From: an uncultured virus (IMG/VR IMGVR_UViG_3300042197_003121)
Lineage: Duplodnaviria; Heunggongvirae; Uroviricota; Caudoviricetes
Direction: 5' to 3' (one strand)
Length of the DNA: 64,000 nucleotides
IMG/VR virus record: IMGVR_UViG_3300042197_003121
The translations under genes were made by a program, and so were the position numbers. This document shows positions 2,290 to 41,891 of the stretch, piece after piece (the stretch's first letter is position 1; every line of letters begins with the position of its first letter). The notes under the pieces are model-generated. The model searched no databases. It worked only from the letters and a program-made list of their open reading frames with translations, and was not told the origin of the DNA.

Positions 2290-2457
2290 AGTAGGTCGGC
2301 AAAAGATTTGACGGATCACGGGCAGTTCGCCCCACCAACACTTGCCCAGCCAAGTTACTTCACCCCACTTCTGTTGTGGAACAAAGTCCTTGTTAGTCCA
2401 AGCGATGCGACCAATAAAGCCGCCCGTGTCGTCAATTCGGATAAAGAGGTCACGCAT
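2287..2457 (-). CDS. Small Trp-rich hypothetical protein (56 aa)
   Basis: Read by hand: MRDLFIRIDDTGGFIGRIAWTNKDFVPQQKWGEVTWLGKCWWGELPVIRQIFCRPT; fills the gap exactly between two sites. Confidence 0.65.
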   Translation of the reverse strand: MRDLFIRIDDTGGFIGRIAWTNKDFVPQQKWGEVTWLGKCWWGELPVIRQIFCRPT

Positions 2458-2472
2458 TAGTCGCTTTCACTA
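2458..2472. repeat. TAGTN-N5-NACTA site
   Basis: TAGTC-GCTTT-CACTA; abuts the ATG of 2287..2457. Confidence 0.7.
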
Positions 2473-2483
2473 ATAGGTGTAAA

Positions 2484-2936
2484 TTAGAACGGAATTTCGT
2501 TCGTCGGTTGATTAAGATCAATCTTCTCCCGAGGGATCGAACCTTTACCATTGTCCAGGTGTGGTGCCACGGCTGCCATGAACGCATTTTCAAAATCCCG
2601 CATCGGATCGATTTTAGGCAACTGATTCAACATCTGAACCATTGCTTTGCTGGCGCTGACAGCAGCAGTTCTGTTGCCATCCTTCCTGGCTTCCATACGA
2701 TCAACCTGAAGACCAGTGAAGACCTGGGCGAAGAGGGCGGCGCGGTTCTCAACACCGATGGATTCGATCAAGAGTTGGCGTCCTGCGCGAACGTAGCTGC
2801 GGGCTTGTTGTGGTGTCACGTCAAAGCGTTTGGAAAGTTGATCGACGACAGCATGACCAGGCCATCCTTCTGCCAGGAGGTTAGCAGCCTGTTCATTCCT
2901 GTCTAGGAGTTCTTCTTTGGTGGAGCGGTGAGTCAT
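2484..2936 (-). CDS. Hypothetical protein, possible N-terminal HTH
   Basis: ATG at 2936 after CA-rich leader; LLAEGWPGHAVVDQLSKRFDVTPQQARSY looks HTH-like. Confidence 0.6.
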   Translation of the reverse strand: MTHRSTKEELLDRNEQAANLLAEGWPGHAVVDQLSKRFDVTPQQARSYVRAGRQLLIESIGVENRAALFAQVFTGLQVDRMEARKDGNRTAAVSASKAMVQMLNQLPKIDPMRDFENAFMAAVAPHLDNGKGSIPREKIDLNQPTNEIPF

Positions 2937-3271
2937 GGTGGTGGTGTGTGCGTTTGATAATGTTGTGCTTTGGAGCACAGCGTGGTCATTGTAGCTCAAT
3001 CAAAATGTGGGTGAGCATAAATGCTTACTATGTTTTACCCACAATTTGATCTTGGTTCGTGGCTATTCTTTTGCTTCTGCGCTGGGATGATTTATCAGTT
3101 CTACCGGAATGAAGTGAACTCCTAATTAGGAGGAAATTAGGAGTTCGTTAGGAGTTACTCGTTGCTGGCGTAAATCAAGAGAGCAATGATGATGTACGTA
3201 ACAGCCGCTAAGCAGAAACCGAGCAACCCAATCACATCCCAGGGGATTGTATCCATTGTTACATTTTCAGA

Positions 3272-3610
3272 TCAGAAGTAGATCCTACTGCCTCCAGGGC
3301 AATAGTCATCATCATCGTAATCAGAACAATCGTTTATTATCGGTTTCCATTCTGCATTAACCAATAATTGGTACCGGTTCACATATTCTTCCAACTCTGA
3401 AGTAGTCTTACCTTTAAATTCTAAGTGATCGGGTAAAGCTTCCGGATAGATTACAGTCTCACATCTCGCTGGTGCAAACTCTGGTGCATCATAAAAAGAC
3501 AGGGGGACGGTGCATTTGCCCATGTTTTCGATGATGGCCGTGACGACCAGATTGCCGTCTCTATCAACATCAAAATCTTCAATGAGAGCGATGTCGTAGT
3601 GGTAGCTCAT
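3272..3610 (-). CDS. Hypothetical acidic protein
   Basis: ATG overlaps the stop of the upstream gene (ATGA). Confidence 0.65.
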   Translation of the reverse strand: MSYHYDIALIEDFDVDRDGNLVVTAIIENMGKCTVPLSFYDAPEFAPARCETVIYPEALPDHLEFKGKTTSELEEYVNRYQLLVNAEWKPIINDCSDYDDDDYCPGGSRIYF

Positions 3611-3804
3611 GATGGTTTGGTTGGTGTGAAGGTCCAGTGTGTGCAACGAAAATCAAAATGCATTTCGCTGGCGGAGAGGTAACTCTCTGTCATCCAGCCA
3701 TGGAGCGGAGAGAAATACAGAACTGTTCCGTATTCATCTGCTTGTTCTTCAGTTGGATAGTCTGCAGGTTCGTCGAGGAAGAATACGTTTTCAGGTAGAA
3801 GCAT
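3607..3804 (-). CDS. Hypothetical protein
   Basis: MLLPENVF...PTEEQADEYG...THW. Confidence 0.6.
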   Translation of the reverse strand: MLLPENVFFLDEPADYPTEEQADEYGTVLYFSPLHGWMTESYLSASEMHFDFRCTHWTFTPTKPS

Positions 3805-3814
3805 GCGTTGAAAT

Positions 3815-4066
3815 CTAAAGAAATAGTGAAGGGATGTCGTACTGCTTAGGAGATGATTCATCCCCTTCAGCTTTACCACCGATGCTGTCGATGTATTCAG
3901 TTTCTTCTTGCAATCGTTCTAACACCGTTTCAATCATTGCTGAAATTGTACCGGCGACACTGTCACCAGAATCCTCAGCAATCTCATGGAGTGTGTTCCA
4001 ATCTTCAGTTGTTAATGTGATACAGACGAGAGACTTGACGTAGGTTGAAGACATCATCAGAGGCAC
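3815..4066 (-). CDS. Possible ribbon-helix-helix DNA-binding protein
   Basis: VCITLTTEDWNTLHEIAEDSGDSVAGTISAMIE pattern. Confidence 0.45.
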   Translation of the reverse strand: MPLMMSSTYVKSLVCITLTTEDWNTLHEIAEDSGDSVAGTISAMIETVLERLQEETEYIDSIGGKAEGDESSPKQYDIPSLFL

Positions 4067-4112
4067 AGAAGTAGCATCAAGGCAACAGCGATGATCGTGT
4101 TGCGGGTGGTTT

Positions 4113-4421
4113 TCATGGCTTGAGAGCTGGCGCAGGACCCTTCAACTGTGCGCGGGATACGCATTGGAGAGAGGGCCCAACAGCCGTCGGGTGTTCAACA
4201 ATGACAGAGACAGATTTAGGGCAATCAATCTCTACCTTCTTGTTGATTTCTTTCTGGATGAACATAGCGACCAGAGCAACAACACCAAGAGAAAGAATCG
4301 CTGGTGTGAGCTTCGCTAAATTCTCAGCCGCATCAATCGCTGCGAGGGCAAGATGTTGAGCAGCTGTTAGTTTCCGTCGTTTGGAGATCATGATGTCACC
4401 GATGTTCAGTAATGTGTGCAA
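4113..4421 (-). CDS. Hypothetical membrane protein
   Basis: One hydrophobic segment AILSLGVVALVAMFI; start uncertain. Confidence 0.55.
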   Translation of the reverse strand: MHTLLNIGDIMISKRRKLTAAQHLALAAIDAAENLAKLTPAILSLGVVALVAMFIQKEINKKVEIDCPKSVSVIVEHPTAVGPSLQCVSRAQLKGPAPALKP

Positions 4422-22270: not shown

Positions 22271-22708
22271 ATGGACCCTAAAAAGGAGAGCGCTGGTAAA
22301 AGAGCTGAAAAATTTCTGGAGAGAATCGGCACTGCTGGTGGCGCAATTGGTTCTCCATTCCTTTTTAGTTTTGGTGCCGGTAATTTAATGGATCAATTGC
22401 AAGCTGGTTTGGTTGATGAGTACGCACCCATCAGGACTCGTGACGCCGCACCTAAAGTCGGAAGTCCAAACGCTGTTGAACCACGGATGCCCAGTGATCT
22501 GGATGCGGCTTATTTAAAATTAAATCTTCCTGGGTCCCCATTGCCTAGAAACGGGCTTATGGCGGCGCAATTTATTGATTCGGCTGAATATACACAAGAC
22601 GCGATCATTGCTAATGAACAGCGGATCTTTTCTAAATTTATGCCCATGACCGGACAGCTGCCGATGGGCATTCAACCTCCGATGCCTCAGAAAAAAGGTC
22701 GCCGCTAA
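22271..22708 (+). CDS. Hypothetical protein
   Basis: ORF in head module. Confidence 0.7.
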   Translation: MDPKKESAGKRAEKFLERIGTAGGAIGSPFLFSFGAGNLMDQLQAGLVDEYAPIRTRDAAPKVGSPNAVEPRMPSDLDAAYLKLNLPGSPLPRNGLMAAQFIDSAEYTQDAIIANEQRIFSKFMPMTGQLPMGIQPPMPQKKGRR

Positions 22709-22971
22709 TGGACAAATCTAAAGCTAAAAAGGCTGTTAAAAAATCGGAGTCCAGGAAACAAATGGCAGAAGCTGCCAACATGATGGCAATTATGCAAGCA
22801 ACTGAAGCCGGGGCTGGCATCGATCCTGAAATTCAATCCTCACAGATTGATATGCAGACTCCGACCGTCAATCCGTATCACGCAATGGGTTCGATGGCTC
22901 CAATGATGTATGCTCCAGGTAACATGCTGCCTGGCTACAACTTCCCCGTAATGGTAAATCCGGAAACCTGA
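22708..22971 (+). CDS. Hypothetical Met-rich protein
   Basis: Coupled TAATG start. Confidence 0.7.
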   Translation: MDKSKAKKAVKKSESRKQMAEAANMMAIMQATEAGAGIDPEIQSSQIDMQTPTVNPYHAMGSMAPMMYAPGNMLPGYNFPVMVNPET

Positions 22972-23005
22972 TTCCAATAGTTATTAATCCGGATTGATAA
23001 ATTGT

Positions 23006-23014
23006 TGCTATAAT
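23006..23014 (+). promoter_or_regulatory. Extended -10 promoter of the capsid gene
   Basis: TGCTATAAT about 140 nt before the ATG. Confidence 0.65.
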
Positions 23015-23153
23015 TTTTGTAATGGGACGGAAGTTCCAGGCCAGTAATGGCGCGAACCTTGAAAATTGAATAAATTTTCCAGATTTTTGGTCCATTACTA
23101 CCATGGGTCTTCTAGATCCTGGTATCAGCTAAAAACTACGCTGTAATACCAAC

Positions 23154-25106
23154 ATGTTTATCGATAGCTAACTCAGATCCTGATAGGTTTTTCCTTTTAA
23201 GATTTGATAAACGGCTAAGTGATTACAATTGAAGTGATCCGCAATTTTTCGATAAGAAAAACCTTCGGCCCTCATCTGCTTCATTTGATTCACATCACTT
23301 TCTGAAAATTTTCTTAAAGTTTTTTTAGCCTTCCCTTTACTGGCATAACCATTTTTAGAGTAACATCCAGCTTTTAACGCCCTGTTGTAGTTTTCTCTTT
23401 TTGTAACGACCTCAAGATTTTCAAGAAAATTGTTTCTTTTGTTGCCATCTTTGTGATCAACCTGAAGAGAATTGCTTCGAACTCCGTGACGAGTTAGATC
23501 TAAATTTAAAAAAGTTATTGCCATAAGAACATGTATGTGATAGCGTTTCCTTTCCCCCTCTTGGGAAATAGAAATTCTGTTGTACGTGCTCGTAGAACTA
23601 ATGCTCAATTCAACAAAACCATTATCGGTTTTTTGATACGGCGTTCCGGTTTCATCTAAGTAAAGGTTTTCGAATCCAGGGACTAGTCTTGGTTCCATGT
23701 TGTATAAAAACAACTTGATTCCAAATTAGCATGCCTTAGCTGAGTAGTCAATGTTGTCGCCTAATCAGGTAACTGATTAGTGAACACCGGGTGAATTCAG
23801 GGAAGCCCTAACGTAAAGACGAGGGTAATCCTGAGCCAAGCCAACTAAGTCCGTAGTTGGAAGGTGCAGAGACTAGGCGGTGGATGACGCTTCATCCGTA
23901 ATACGTCGTTAGCGCCCGGCACCCTACCAAGGGTGAAGAGATAGTCCACCCCTTCAAGAAATTGAAGATCAGGAGAACGACTTTCCCAAGCTGTTGGGTG
24001 CGGAGCTGTACCGCCCCCATCCGGCTTACATTGTGGAAATGGCAGCTGAGCCTGTTGTTGTCCACGATTTCACTAAACAGCCTGGTCAAACTGTTCAGTT
24101 AGACCGGTATCGTTTCTGGGGCAACCCTGGGACCAAGACTCAGCGTGAGCGCACCCAAGACCAAACGATCGGTACGGCCAACAGCCGCTCCATCGTTAAG
24201 GACAAGGTGCTTGTGTCTCTGCGTGAGTACACCGGCCCTGCTGACCCGAATAACTCCAACCTCCCGAGCACCTTCAAGATCGCTCGTGAGACTCTGATGA
24301 CCGCACAGCGCCTGCTGCTGGACACCGGGAACCTTAACATGTTCCACCAGTCCATCGGTTCGCTGACCCTGCTCGATGACTATCGTCGTTGGCGCGATCG
24401 CGTCTTCCTTGACGAGTTCTCGAAATCTGAAGCTCGTGGCGCTGCATCTGATACCCAAGGTGGTTATTACTACCCCAACGGTAAAGTCAAGACTGGCGCG
24501 ACTACTCTGACTGCCTATAGTGCAACTGAGTACGCTTCGGAGCGTTACAAGTTCAACGTTAAGACCGACCTGCTGGAAGTTGTCAAGCAACTTCGTAAGC
24601 GGAACACCCCTGTGTTTGCTGACGGTTACTACCGTTGTATCGCTGATCCCTCCTTCATGAAGGATCTGCGTGCTGACCAAGGCTTCCGTGAAGTGGCTCG
24701 TTACCCTGGCATGGGTCAGCCTAACCCCCTGATGGGTGCTATGGCGCCTAACTCCGCCATCTATGGCGGTGGCCAGTTCGGTCAAGCTCAGTTCGTTGCT
24801 GGCGAACCCGTCATGCCTTCCGGCTTTGTGTTTGAAGGTGTCCGGTTCTTCGAATCGACCAACTTTGCTGACAAGTCAATCACTGTTGACATTGGCGACG
24901 GTAGTGGTGCTATTTCTCACACCACTCCTCCCGCTCTGTTCTTTGGCCCTCAAGCCGTCGGCGTGGGTATCGGTGGTCCGAACGCTCAGGTTCTGATCAA
25001 CAATAACGACGACTTCAGCCGCTTCATCATCCTGATTTGGCAGCTGTACGCCGGTTTCGCGAACCTGAACAAGGACTTCGTGACTGCCGCCTTCACCATC
25101 GTTTGA
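23154..25106 (+). CDS. Major capsid protein, spliced: exon 1 23154-23165, exon 2 23976-25106 (380 aa)
   Basis: Joined exons read MFID-NDFPKLLGAELYRPHP; strongly biased codons; QPGQTVQLDRY and G.FEGVRFFES capsid-like motifs. Confidence 0.85.
23166..23975 (+). mobile_element. Group I intron (810 nt)
   Basis: P GAATTCAGGGAA, Q AATCCTGAGC, R GTGCAGAGACTA, S AAGAGATAGTCC; P3 CCGGGTG/CGCCCGG, P8 and P9 hairpins; 5' exon ends in U, intron ends in G; frame restored. Confidence 0.92.
23168..23713 (-). CDS. Intron-encoded HNH homing endonuclease (antisense to host gene)
   Basis: YHIHVLMA..F, VDHKDGNKRNN...NLEVVT..EN, C-terminal HTH. Confidence 0.9.
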   Translation of the reverse strand: MFLYNMEPRLVPGFENLYLDETGTPYQKTDNGFVELSISSTSTYNRISISQEGERKRYHIHVLMAITFLNLDLTRHGVRSNSLQVDHKDGNKRNNFLENLEVVTKRENYNRALKAGCYSKNGYASKGKAKKTLRKFSESDVNQMKQMRAEGFSYRKIADHFNCNHLAVYQILKGKTYQDLS

Positions 25107-41818: not shown

Positions 41819-41891
41819 TACCCGAGGTGAGATTCGAACTCACGCTGGAGGACTTTTAAGGTCCCTGTCTCTTCCGCTGGACTACTCGGGC
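41819..41891 (-). tRNA. tRNA-Leu(UAA), no encoded CCA
   Basis: GCCCGAG/CTCGGGT acceptor, GGGAC-CTTAAAA-GTCCT anticodon arm, GTGAG-TTCGAAT-CTCAC T arm, discriminator A. Confidence 0.9.

Follow-up and report, generated by a model that had tools for sequence, protein, structure and literature searches.

Evidence for a mobile group I intron with an opposite-strand HNH gene near the start of a cyanophage capsid gene

Architecture of the capsid locus

The window analysed here is a stretch of 64,000 nucleotides from an uncultured Caudoviricetes virus. Its major capsid gene was read directly as ATG TTT ATC GAT (23154–23165) followed by AGC TAA, and the stop TAA at 23169–23171 is in frame, two codons into the intron. 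The intron ends with ...CAGGAG at 23975, and exon 2 continues with AAC GAC TTT CCC AAG from 23976, in frame with the long open reading frame that the ORF list opens at TTG 23994. The locus contains the following elements:

23006–23014, plus strand: candidate extended -10 promoter of the capsid transcript, TGCTATAAT (direct reading)
23154–23165, plus strand: exon 1 of the major capsid gene, ATGTTTATCGAT, encoding MFID (direct reading and intronless relatives)
23166–23975, plus strand: group I intron of 810 nt, beginning right after U23165 and ending with the terminal G23975 (both ends set by intronless alleles)
23168–23698, minus strand: I-HmuI-like HNH homing-endonuclease gene, 176 codons and stop, with a C-terminal helix-turn-helix (PF13392, phrog_59, PDB 1u3e)
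23723–23751, minus strand: candidate HNH promoter, TTGACT (23751–23746), 17-nt spacer, TG (23731–23730) and TAATTT (23728–23723) (direct reading)
23976–25106, plus strand: exon 2 of the major capsid gene, NDFPKLLGAELYRPHP... to the stop (homology, PHROG match)

The 5′ splice site is fixed without any RNA model, because intronless alleles abut exon 1 and exon 2. We took 80 related capsid loci, and the 78 that reach the gene start serve as the denominator for splice-site counts. In 71 of these, ATGTT[TC]AT[TCA]GA[TC] is followed directly by AA[CT]GA..., and the other seven carry an insert at precisely the joint of the two exons. In the intronless relatives ATGTTYATHGAY abuts AAYGAY and the protein starts with MFIDNDFPK, so removal of the intron yields an uninterrupted gene with the conserved N-terminus MFID-NDFPK. 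Among the N-termini of 17 homologous proteins that were fetched, 13 read MFIDNDFPK, one MWIDNDFPK and one VFIDSDFPK; the remaining two are truncated calls of 355 aa that begin with MAAEP. The preliminary description, which had placed a group I intron after capsid codon 4 and had expected intronless homologues to start with MFIDNDFPK, was thus correct on both points. The letters ATCGAT before the splice site are kept in all 20 distinct intron copies, and the nearest record (G001) carries an intron identical to that of the window.

The name 'major capsid' rests on PHROG and Atlas matches and on a below-threshold Pfam match. The protein has 822 homologues at E≤0.001 and matches phrog_1357, 'major head protein' (E 2.5e-15). 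Its neighbours in the Atlas carry Phage_capsid_3 or Phage_capsid_4, and Pfam returned Phage_capsid_3 alone for the protein and its homologues, below the cut-off of that family. A profile search of the PDB with the capsid alignment gave no match at E≤1, and an AlphaFold2 model from a 13-row alignment was unusable (pLDDT 30.7, pTM 0.19). It had also been claimed that ORF callers truncate the gene to a TTG start. Truncated 355-aa calls do exist, starting in the protein databases at the ATG of MAAEP (ATG 24039; P0019 and P0024); the start at TTG 23994 is a product of the longest-ORF rule.

The ribozyme core and the P1 hairpin

The Rfam group I intron family RF00028 matches 23727–23968 on the plus strand over the full model (1–253) with 99.4 bits (E 5.9e-26; gathering score 50), and this is the sole intron match of the Rfam search in the 64-kb window. 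The structural elements were assigned as follows:

23162–23176, plus strand: 5′ strand of P1, exon CGAU with the first intron bases, and of the P1 extension (ACUCAG, 23171–23176) (direct reading)
23740–23759, plus strand: 3′ strand of the P1 extension (CUGAGU, 23740–23745) and internal guide sequence GUUGUCG (23753–23759) (reading, compensation, fold)
23761–23967, plus strand: ribozyme core (Rfam alignment, pair counts)
23761–23780, plus strand: P2
23787–23793 with 23913–23919, plus strand: P3
23797–23802 with 23829–23834, plus strand: P4
23806–23813 with 23820–23825, plus strand: P5
23836–23864, plus strand: P6
23871–23875 with 23942–23946, plus strand: P7
23876–23907, plus strand: extra hairpin between P7 and the 3′ strand of P3
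23920–23935, plus strand: P8
23952–23967, plus strand: P9

Pairing in the core was counted on seven distinct sequences. All 434 cells of the 62 pairs are paired (434/434), and 10 pairs have changed on both sides. None of 500 shuffles scored as high, and slid controls were paired at 27–45%. P4, P5, P6 and P7 are uninformative with respect to covariation, since they are invariant. The minimum-energy fold of a related 268-nt form of the intron recovered the P1 extension, P2 to P6, the extra hairpin, P8 and P9. These data show that the ribozyme core is intact and under structural selection.

In the P1 that we propose, exon CGAU would pair with GUCG of the guide, placing U23165 opposite G23756 in a U.G pair at the splice site; the exon part pairs over 4 bp only, and two registers are possible for inner P1. 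The guide letters GUU could pair with AAC of the 3′ exon to form P10, and G23975, the last intron base, would serve as the terminal G. The guide pairing with its U.G and the P10 potential agree with the preliminary description. A stem of 6 bp (23171–23176 with 23740–23745) is predicted to prolong P1 and to close a loop of 563 nt. This extension shows compensatory changes, reading ACUCAG/CUGAGU in the window, GCUCAG/CUGAGC in the relatives L092 and L005 (the P1 of L005 was read directly from the sequence) and GCUCCAC/GUGGAGC in L110. The HNH gene sits in the loop of the extended hairpin on the opposite strand, as had been proposed, and the 5′ strand of P1 overlaps with the final three codons and the stop of the gene. 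On unspliced RNA, the TAA two codons into the intron would stop ribosomes.

Spliced RNA in lake metatranscriptomes

The expected junction, ATCGAT-AACGAC, is present in contigs from RNA. Contigs joining 23165 to 23976, with 810 nt skipped, were found in four of four lake metatranscriptome runs, and contigs retaining the intron stand beside the joined ones in the same runs. The RNA evidence consists of assembled contigs, whose strand is not readable and whose libraries may contain DNA. The junction contigs measure only 59 nt in three runs (29 and 30 letters on the two sides) and 1984 nt in run X5 alone. The runs carry a 97–98% relative of the window, a different genotype. The RNA contigs agree with the intron-bearing DNA contigs L083 and L084 at every one of the 38 variant letters listed, of which 17 fall in the intron and 21 in exon 2, and run X5 fits L086 at the single place that differs. 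In one further RNA contig, 23974 is followed immediately by 23166, so that the terminal G is missing.

An intronless allele, or DNA in the libraries, could also be the source of the joined form; the intron would then be a non-splicing remnant, and the capsid protein would be made from an internal start at TTG 23994 or ATG 24039. Intronless alleles are common among the 78 loci, and a loose end in run X1 that reads an ATT GAT allele places intronless relatives in the same samples; because samples are shared in this way, an intronless twin of the intron-bearing genotype is conceivable. The gene calls that begin at ATG 24039 would fit such an internal start. However, the junction contigs lie on the haplotype of intron-bearing DNA at every listed place, and all four DNA contigs with the window-type 29-base 5′ flank (three viral contigs and one from metagenome contigs) carry the 810-nt intron, leaving none of the four as an intronless source. 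A dead remnant would also not keep complete core pairing with compensatory changes, and an internal start would drop the first 24 residues, which include 16 columns invariant among 13 homologues. We consider this explanation extremely improbable. The RNA joint shares its haplotype with intron-bearing DNA, so the intron is spliced in nature: the lakes hold exactly spliced RNA of a genotype whose DNA bears the intron.

The HNH gene and the mobility of the intron

The minus-strand open reading frame 23713–23168 matches HNH_3 (PF13392; E 4e-10, 39.6 bits against a cut-off of 24.8) and ends in a C-terminal helix-turn-helix. This agrees with the HNH gene of the preliminary description. The protein also matches phrog_59 (E 2.9e-25) and the 'HNH homing endonuclease' of PDB entry 1u3e (E 8.2e-8). 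In the latter comparison VDHKDGNK...N...N is aligned and D-H...N...N is kept, and we take the aligned His and Asn residues to be catalytic. Close relatives have ATG or GTG as the start codon at 23698, and L110 has TTG. The reading frame is intact in all 19 distinct copies, with a dN/dS of 0.075–0.139 for pairs with unsaturated dS, and in 11 of 11 close HNH loci examined with Rfam an intron lies opposite to the HNH strand. Pairs with L107 are left out of the dN/dS range, as they used a misassigned start; the reading frame of L107 is itself intact.

Six distinct intron-bearing capsid alleles require six gains or losses on the exon-2 tree, in which L002, the sister of the window, is intronless with a support of 100/99. 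About 45 nt of upstream flank are common to the intron-bearing alleles and missing from their nearest intronless relatives. The HNH gene lies within, and is inherited with, an intron that is patchily distributed among close alleles. In L005 a 268-nt intron lacks exactly the HNH gene: once 541 nt are taken out of the L092 type, the two agree at 259 of 268 positions, and the deletion lies between two CCTT repeats. In the ungapped comparison of breakpoints, the low counts for the window, L088, L090, L107 and L110 are artefacts of length differences of one or two bases. L005 shows that the endonuclease gene can be lost while the intron is retained.

Homing is indicated by the family assignment, by reading frames that stay intact under purifying selection, by the patchy occurrence of the intron and by the flanks that its carriers share. 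The HNH protein would nick or cut intronless capsid alleles around the start codon, and repair of the cut allele would copy the intron in. A different role is conceivable: the protein might, instead or in addition, be directed against intronless relatives in the same infected cell or assist splicing, or it might be inactive. Enzymes of the I-HmuI type are nickases that cut intron-bearing DNA too, and intron endonucleases are reported to take part in competition between phages. The strong purifying selection on the gene shows that it has a function of some kind. On the other hand, the patchy distribution and the shared flanks fit ordinary homing, and the 268-nt copy has an intact core, so that the protein is dispensable for folding in that lineage. 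We regard a role other than, or beyond, homing as unlikely. Taken together, the locus very probably holds a mobile 810-nt group I intron, inserted 12 bases into the major capsid gene (counted from the start codon) of an S-EIV1-like freshwater cyanophage.

Candidate promoters and antisense transcription

The promoter proposals are extended -10 motifs picked by eye and by script. For the capsid transcript, TGCTATAAT is such a candidate, and the motif TTGCTATAAT also lies upstream in the intronless relatives L002 and L006. RNA contigs start at 23030–23053 in four runs, and X2, X3 and X5 have no contig on 22800–23027. This is a weak hint that the transcript starts just after TGCTATAAT; the contig gap by itself is no evidence. 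For the HNH gene, the preliminary description had named a candidate promoter of its own at 23731–23723, the reverse complement of which is TGCTAATTT. As a candidate this stands, as 18 of 19 distinct copies have TGnTAnnnT 23–26 nt ahead of the HNH start, amid letters that vary. The spacing of the -35 differs among copies, being ≤15 nt in several groups and 10 nt in L110. A sigma-70 consensus scan of 22700–24200 on both strands returned no promoter, against 2.9 expected by chance; it missed the HNH candidate because the -10 of this fits only 3 of 6 positions, and the capsid candidate because it has no -35. The HNH gene would probably be transcribed leftwards, with a host-type extended -10 promoter of its own that overlaps the region of the P1 3′ strand and the guide. 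The -35 falls in this region, the -10 at the border of the P1 loop.

A polymerase transcribing the HNH gene would run over the 5′ splice site and then over the start codon and 5′ UTR of the capsid gene, and the HNH transcript or convergent transcription might therefore slow or limit splicing and the production of capsid protein. The arrangement itself is real: the candidate promoter (23751–23723), whose motif is conserved, points at the capsid start, 3 nt separate the HNH stop from the splice site, and the sole minus-strand terminator-like site found downstream is at 22777–22763. For nuclear rDNA introns with antisense endonuclease genes, PMC9548176 likewise discusses antisense interference as a potential problem. 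However, the RNA contigs cannot show strand, and selfish mobility fully explains the arrangement. Capsid expression needs no control of this kind, since L005 keeps its intron although the HNH gene and the promoter are gone, and 71 of the 78 loci that reach the gene start have no intron at all. We judge antisense control of the capsid gene to be quite unlikely. In a more specific form, the HNH promoter inside P1 would couple its own expression to a block of capsid splicing and translation, and the excised intron would persist as a non-canonical circular RNA, of which the RNA contig with 23974 next to 23166 would be a trace. Were this so, every HNH transcript would be complementary to the P1 5′ strand and the 5′ splice site as well as to the start codon and 5′ UTR of the capsid gene. 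We hold this to be very unlikely.

Discussion

At one site, the capsid locus offers a natural population for the homing cycle, with intronless alleles, alleles with intron and endonuclease in at least five diverged groups, and one endonuclease-free derivative; the environmental RNA adds splicing in situ. For annotation, the consequence is that gene callers shorten the capsid gene of a widespread freshwater cyanophage lineage and miss its 12-base exon. The opposite-strand layout is rare, and its experimental documentation has so far come from one mycobacteriophage. The present locus can serve as a tractable model of it: the gene can be located to the P1 loop, a conserved promoter motif can be named, and the coexistence of a ribozyme with a convergent gene is therefore directly testable.

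Comparison with known systems

A close counterpart of the HNH protein is I-HmuI, the HNH nicking endonuclease from the DNA-polymerase intron of Bacillus phage SPO1 (PDB 1u3e). The two proteins are of similar length (174 and 176 aa), both come from phage group I introns, and their N-terminal and HNH regions align, though at low identity and over residues 4–115 only. In SPO1 the I-HmuI gene lies on the sense strand inside the DNA-polymerase gene, unlike the arrangement in the window.

The ribozyme core resembles bacterial introns in tRNA anticodon loops, of the tRNA-Leu(UAA) type. A 16-base P4/P6 junction (23827–23842) is identical in both; this exact word occurs at 121 genome loci, of which 78 hold an intron-bearing tRNA according to ARAGORN, including 28 Leu(UAA) and 23 Gln(CUG). 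Identity between the cores is 72–81% over about 95–130 nt, and the exon part of P1 is short in both. The intron may thus be of the tRNA type (IC3-like). Unlike the tRNA introns, it lies in a protein-coding phage gene and has the extra hairpin at 23876–23907 and a long, gene-bearing P1 extension.

Antisense homing-endonuclease genes are described for nuclear rDNA group I introns, namely I-DirII and I-DsqI (parts of PMC9548176 and PMC3073962). According to these parts, the endonuclease gene lies opposite to the ribozyme strand in a peripheral loop and has its own internal promoter, as the candidate in the window would be. These systems differ in being eukaryotic, with His-Cys box enzymes, pol II promoters, spliceosomal introns and poly(A) tails, and in using P9-type loops of group IE introns in rRNA genes. 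Our literature search for opposite-strand endonuclease genes in phage or bacterial group I introns listed nuclear rDNA cases only, to which mycobacteriophage LittleE is to be added. The words 'antisense' and 'opposite' are absent from the review of bacterial introns PMC3984707, and a search whose coverage left out subscription journals found no paper describing this cyanophage intron.

The novelty that the preliminary description implied for the layout was overstated. Group I introns in major capsid genes were found in crAss-like phages via intron-encoded protein domains, so there, too, a core structural phage gene depends on group I splicing; unlike in the window, an opposite-strand arrangement goes unmentioned in the sections of PMC7886860 on these introns. 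In LittleE, a Cluster J mycobacteriophage, the combination of a capsid-gene group I intron with an opposite-strand endonuclease gene is already known, as given in the passages of Pope et al. 2013 (PMC3706429) on this phage. There, an intron of 819 bp in the major capsid gene is called 'most likely a group I', with a U before it and a G at its end. It carries a gene for a 177-aa endonuclease on the bottom strand, 'transcribed in the leftwards direction', and splicing was proven by RT-PCR and N-terminal sequencing; a related endonuclease-free intron of 265 bp occurs in the same phage group. The two systems thus share a capsid-gene group I intron of about 0.8 kb with an opposite-strand endonuclease gene, intact in the window, a likeness by description. 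Mycobacterium phages are absent among the best 25 matches of each of two phage-database searches, one with the HNH protein and one with the core. As described in the same passages of PMC3706429, LittleE is, unlike the cyanophage of the window, a temperate siphovirus of Mycobacterium, its insertion lies further inside the gene, near the prohead-processing site, and its endonuclease is LAGLIDADG/I-CreI-like with an HNH-like C-terminus, in contrast to the I-HmuI-like protein of the window. Whereas these passages are silent on the position of the gene in the RNA structure and on its promoter, both can be stated for the window, the promoter as a candidate.

The capsid gene is interrupted after its fourth codon

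On the plus strand, the window reads ATG TTT ATC GAT at 23154-23165, followed by AGC TAA. The long downstream ORF starts at TTG 23994 by the longest-ORF rule, its frame being open back to 23937. Among PHROG families, this ORF matches phrog_1357, 'major head protein' (E 2.5e-15); a 757-aa protein encoded ahead of it matches phrog_20475, 'virion structural protein' (E 2.9e-208). A search with translated exon 2 gave 822 homologues at E<=0.001. Of 17 homologues taken from these, 13 begin with MFIDNDFPK, the N-terminus that a preliminary description of this DNA had predicted for intronless homologues, one with MWIDNDFPK and one with VFIDSDFPK. The remaining two are 355-aa gene calls starting MAAEP, which is the type of truncation caused by an intron.

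Splice sites were compared in the best 80 related viral loci, 78 of which contain the gene start. ATGTT[TC]AT[TCA]GA[TC] is directly joined to AA[CT]GA in 71 of these 78 loci, and the other seven carry an insert at exactly this joint. The cultured relative S-EIVl (70.6% identity) is intronless and has a GTG start. Intronless loci and homologue N-termini thus fix the following borders.

Features of the interrupted capsid gene, with their basis
23154-23165, plus strand: exon 1 (intronless alleles and homologue N-termini)
23166-23975, plus strand: intron, 810 nt (intronless alleles)
23976, plus strand: start of exon 2 (intronless alleles)

The window and intronless alleles have homologous 5' UTRs ahead of exon 1. 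A small hairpin (UCAGC...GCUG, 23127-23146) directly precedes the start codon and is kept, with a variable loop, in intron-bearing and intronless relatives alike. Further upstream, about 140 nt before the capsid start, TGCTATAAT at 23006-23014 is a perfect extended -10 motif that is also present in the intronless relatives L002 and L006. Contigs of four RNA runs start at 23030-23053, 16-39 nt past this motif, which may be a capsid promoter and has the same TGCTA style as the promoter motif of the HNH gene. In S-EIVl (Synechococcus phage, KJ410740.1), tblastn aligns 100% of the query without a break to the capsid homologue at 2911-4137. The deposited annotation of this region consists of a minus-strand hypothetical ORF and a short plus-strand ORF, and the capsid gene looks mis-called in that record.

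The intron contains a group I ribozyme

Rfam identified a group I ribozyme at 23727-23968 (plus strand) with 99.4 bits against a gathering score of 50, the sole one found in the whole window. Elsewhere in the window, a tRNA gene lies at 41819-41891 on the minus strand (RF00005, 53.3 bits). In the internal guide sequence, GUCG (23756-23759) can form a helix with exon CGAU (23162-23165), with a U.G at the splice site, and GUU (23753-23755) has two possible partners, the start of the intron and the 3' exon AAC (P10). P1 is extended by ACUCAG (23171-23176) with CUGAGU (23740-23745). Compensatory changes in this extension are found in related viral loci (GCUCAG/CUGAGC in L092 and L005, GCUCCAC/GUGGAGC in the divergent L110). 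The loop between the two strands measures 563 nt (23177-23739).

The core was modelled as P2-P9 with a P3/P7 pseudoknot and an extra hairpin between P7 and the 3' strand of P3. Across seven distinct sequences, the 62 pairs of this model are paired in 434 of 434 cells and ten pairs are changed on both sides. This pair count was reached by 0 of 500 shuffles, and slid controls were 27-45% paired. P4-P7 are uninformative for covariation because they are invariant. When the 268-nt form without the endonuclease gene was folded by minimum energy, the same helices were recovered (z -2.69); the innermost P1 is drawn there in another register, so that two registers of the inner P1 are possible. Exact copies of the 16-base P4/P6 junction were found at 121 loci in bacterial genomes, and ARAGORN calls an intron-bearing tRNA in 78 of them, including 28 Leu(UAA) and 23 Gln(CUG). 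Since it shares this junction with bacterial tRNA introns, the ribozyme is, judged by its sequence, probably of the tRNA-intron type.

An HNH gene lies in the P1 loop on the opposite strand

The minus-strand ORF 23713-23168 encodes an HNH_3 domain (E 4e-10, above cut-off) and, at the C-terminus, a helix-turn-helix. Matches were to phrog_59 'HNH endonuclease' (E 2.9e-25) and, over residues 4-115 with VDHKDGNK...N...N aligned, to the structure of the homing endonuclease I-HmuI (PDB 1u3e, E 8.2e-8). At the 3' end of the gene, the stop and the three codons before it overlap the 5' strand of the P1 hairpin, which places the stop 3 nt from the splice site. What the preliminary description observed, and its structural reading of a group I intron after codon 4 with the guide and P10 pairings present and an opposite-strand HNH gene within the P1 loop, are confirmed. 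The timing control by antisense RNA that it raised is a hypothesis of low probability. Stop codons of both strands overlap at 23168-23171: the plus-strand TAA (23169-23171) stops translation of unspliced RNA, and the TAG of the HNH gene is the complement of 23168-23170.

A search with the HNH protein found 49 loci, of which 24 are full-length matches at 55-100% identity, and Rfam was run on 20 of the 49. Intron and HNH gene are on opposite strands in 11 of 11 close loci and share a strand in two loci with a 30%-identical HNH; in seven distant HNH loci Rfam gave no intron match. In the viral contigs L111 and L112, a 30%-identical HNH gene (1501-1968) is located just upstream of a group I core (2260-2589, 60.7 bits) on the same strand; this is the sense arrangement that is usual, here with a distantly related enzyme.

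All routes pooled gave 35 locus records, several being one contig twice, and 20 distinct introns: 19 with the HNH gene (802-810 nt) and one without (268 nt). ATCGAT precedes the splice site in all 20. The HNH ORF is intact in 19 of 19 copies; the 18 close ones use an ATG or GTG start at the codon of 23698, and L110 uses a TTG. The dN/dS of the ORF is 0.075-0.139 where dS is unsaturated, with synonymous differences of up to 0.6-0.7 per site. The endonuclease-free L005 intron lacks 541 nt of the L092 type, between two CCTT words, is otherwise identical to it at 259 of 268 positions and retains the last 10 HNH codons; we therefore regard it as a deletion derivative and not as an ancestral empty intron. 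Phage isolate genomes yielded no close relative of the HNH protein (670 matching records, all <60% identity) or of the ribozyme core (best match 74.5% over 74% of the query).

Upstream of the HNH gene, the minus strand carries TTGACT (23751-23746) and, after a 17-nt gap, TAATTT (23728-23723) with TG before it. A consensus promoter scan lists no promoter at 23751-23723, since the -10 matches at just 3 of 6 positions. TGnTAnnnT is present 23-26 nt before the HNH start codon in 18 of 19 distinct copies, including L110; in locus L100, TA replaces TG. The motif is retained though the neighbouring loop sequence varies between groups, and the -35 spacing is not retained. From this retention within differing loops we infer that TGnTAnnnT is probably a conserved extended -10 promoter of the HNH gene, in agreement with the candidate promoter proposed previously.

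The intron is very probably spliced in lake metatranscriptomes

An index search returned 24 runs, 23 of them RNA, which share 0.23-0.34 of the sampled words with the window and are all metatranscriptomes of lake water in contig form. Four runs (X1, X2, X3 and X5) were examined against the window. A contig joining 23165 to 23976, with exactly 810 bases skipped, was found in all four, as anticipated for the spliced junction. It is a 59-nt unit in three runs and 1984 nt long, continuing through exon 2, in X5. Intron-retaining contigs occur alongside (869 nt over 23137-24005 in X1-X3).

The joined form might instead stem from an intronless allele, as intronless relatives exist and one is visible as a loose end in X1. 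However, the RNA contigs match the DNA contigs L083 and L084 at all 38 variant letters listed, of which 17 are intronic and 21 lie in exon 2, X5 agrees with L086 at the single differing place, and these three DNA contigs are all intron-bearing. Likewise, the window-type 29-base 5' flank occurs in three viral contigs and one metagenome contig, and the 810-nt intron comes next in all four. Because the RNA haplotype is that of intron-bearing DNA and all four copies of this flank precede the intron, splicing is a far better explanation than an intronless allele for the joined form in these contigs, which carry no strand information and come from RNA runs only.

An X5 contig joins window 23792-23974 to 23166-23195 head to tail, as of circular or concatemeric intron RNA. 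This junction is unlike that of the usual circle, because the terminal G23975, the usual attacking base, is missing by the mapped coordinates. It was seen in one of four runs at a depth of 5.9, has a shorter side of just 30 letters and is absent from the mapping's table of joints.

Distribution among relatives

In a maximum-likelihood exon-2 tree with 70 distinct rows, 6 of them intron-bearing, intron presence needs six gains or losses, the same number as with shuffled labels. The sister of the window, L002, is intronless (support 100/99). About 45 nt of upstream flank, and in part the first ~25 nt of exon 2, are common to intron-bearing alleles from different branches and absent from their nearest intronless relatives. 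Co-conversion during homing would leave such flanks; recombination for other reasons is a possible source as well.

The more distant relative L110 (capsid identity about 70%, HNH identity 55%, high G+C) shares the first intron and its backward HNH gene. After ...VVVHDF, at about 2394-2697 (reverse complement), it bears another group I intron (RF00028, 65.7 bits), this one without an endonuclease gene. The site of this second intron in the window, after capsid codon 36 near 24083, holds no insert.

Comparison with known systems

A literature search on phage or bacterial group I introns whose endonuclease gene lies on the other strand listed only nuclear rDNA cases (PMC9548176, PMC3073962). A phage precedent is mycobacteriophage LittleE, which has an 819-bp intron, probably group I, in its major capsid gene; the endonuclease ORF of this intron (177 aa) is 'on the bottom strand' and 'transcribed in the leftwards direction', splicing was demonstrated by RT-PCR and N-terminal sequencing, a related endonuclease-free intron of 265 bp is described, and a capsid-gene intron of lactococcal phage Tuc2009 is cited (PMC3706429). 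Group I introns in major capsid genes are also described for crAss-like phages (PMC7886860). From the LittleE description and the published capsid-gene introns, a capsid-gene intron with an opposite-strand endonuclease gene is therefore a layout already known. Compared with LittleE and the other known cases, specific to the window are the I-HmuI-type enzyme, the insertion 12 bases past the start codon, the location of the HNH gene in the P1 loop with a candidate promoter motif overlapping the P1/guide region, and the population and metatranscriptome evidence.
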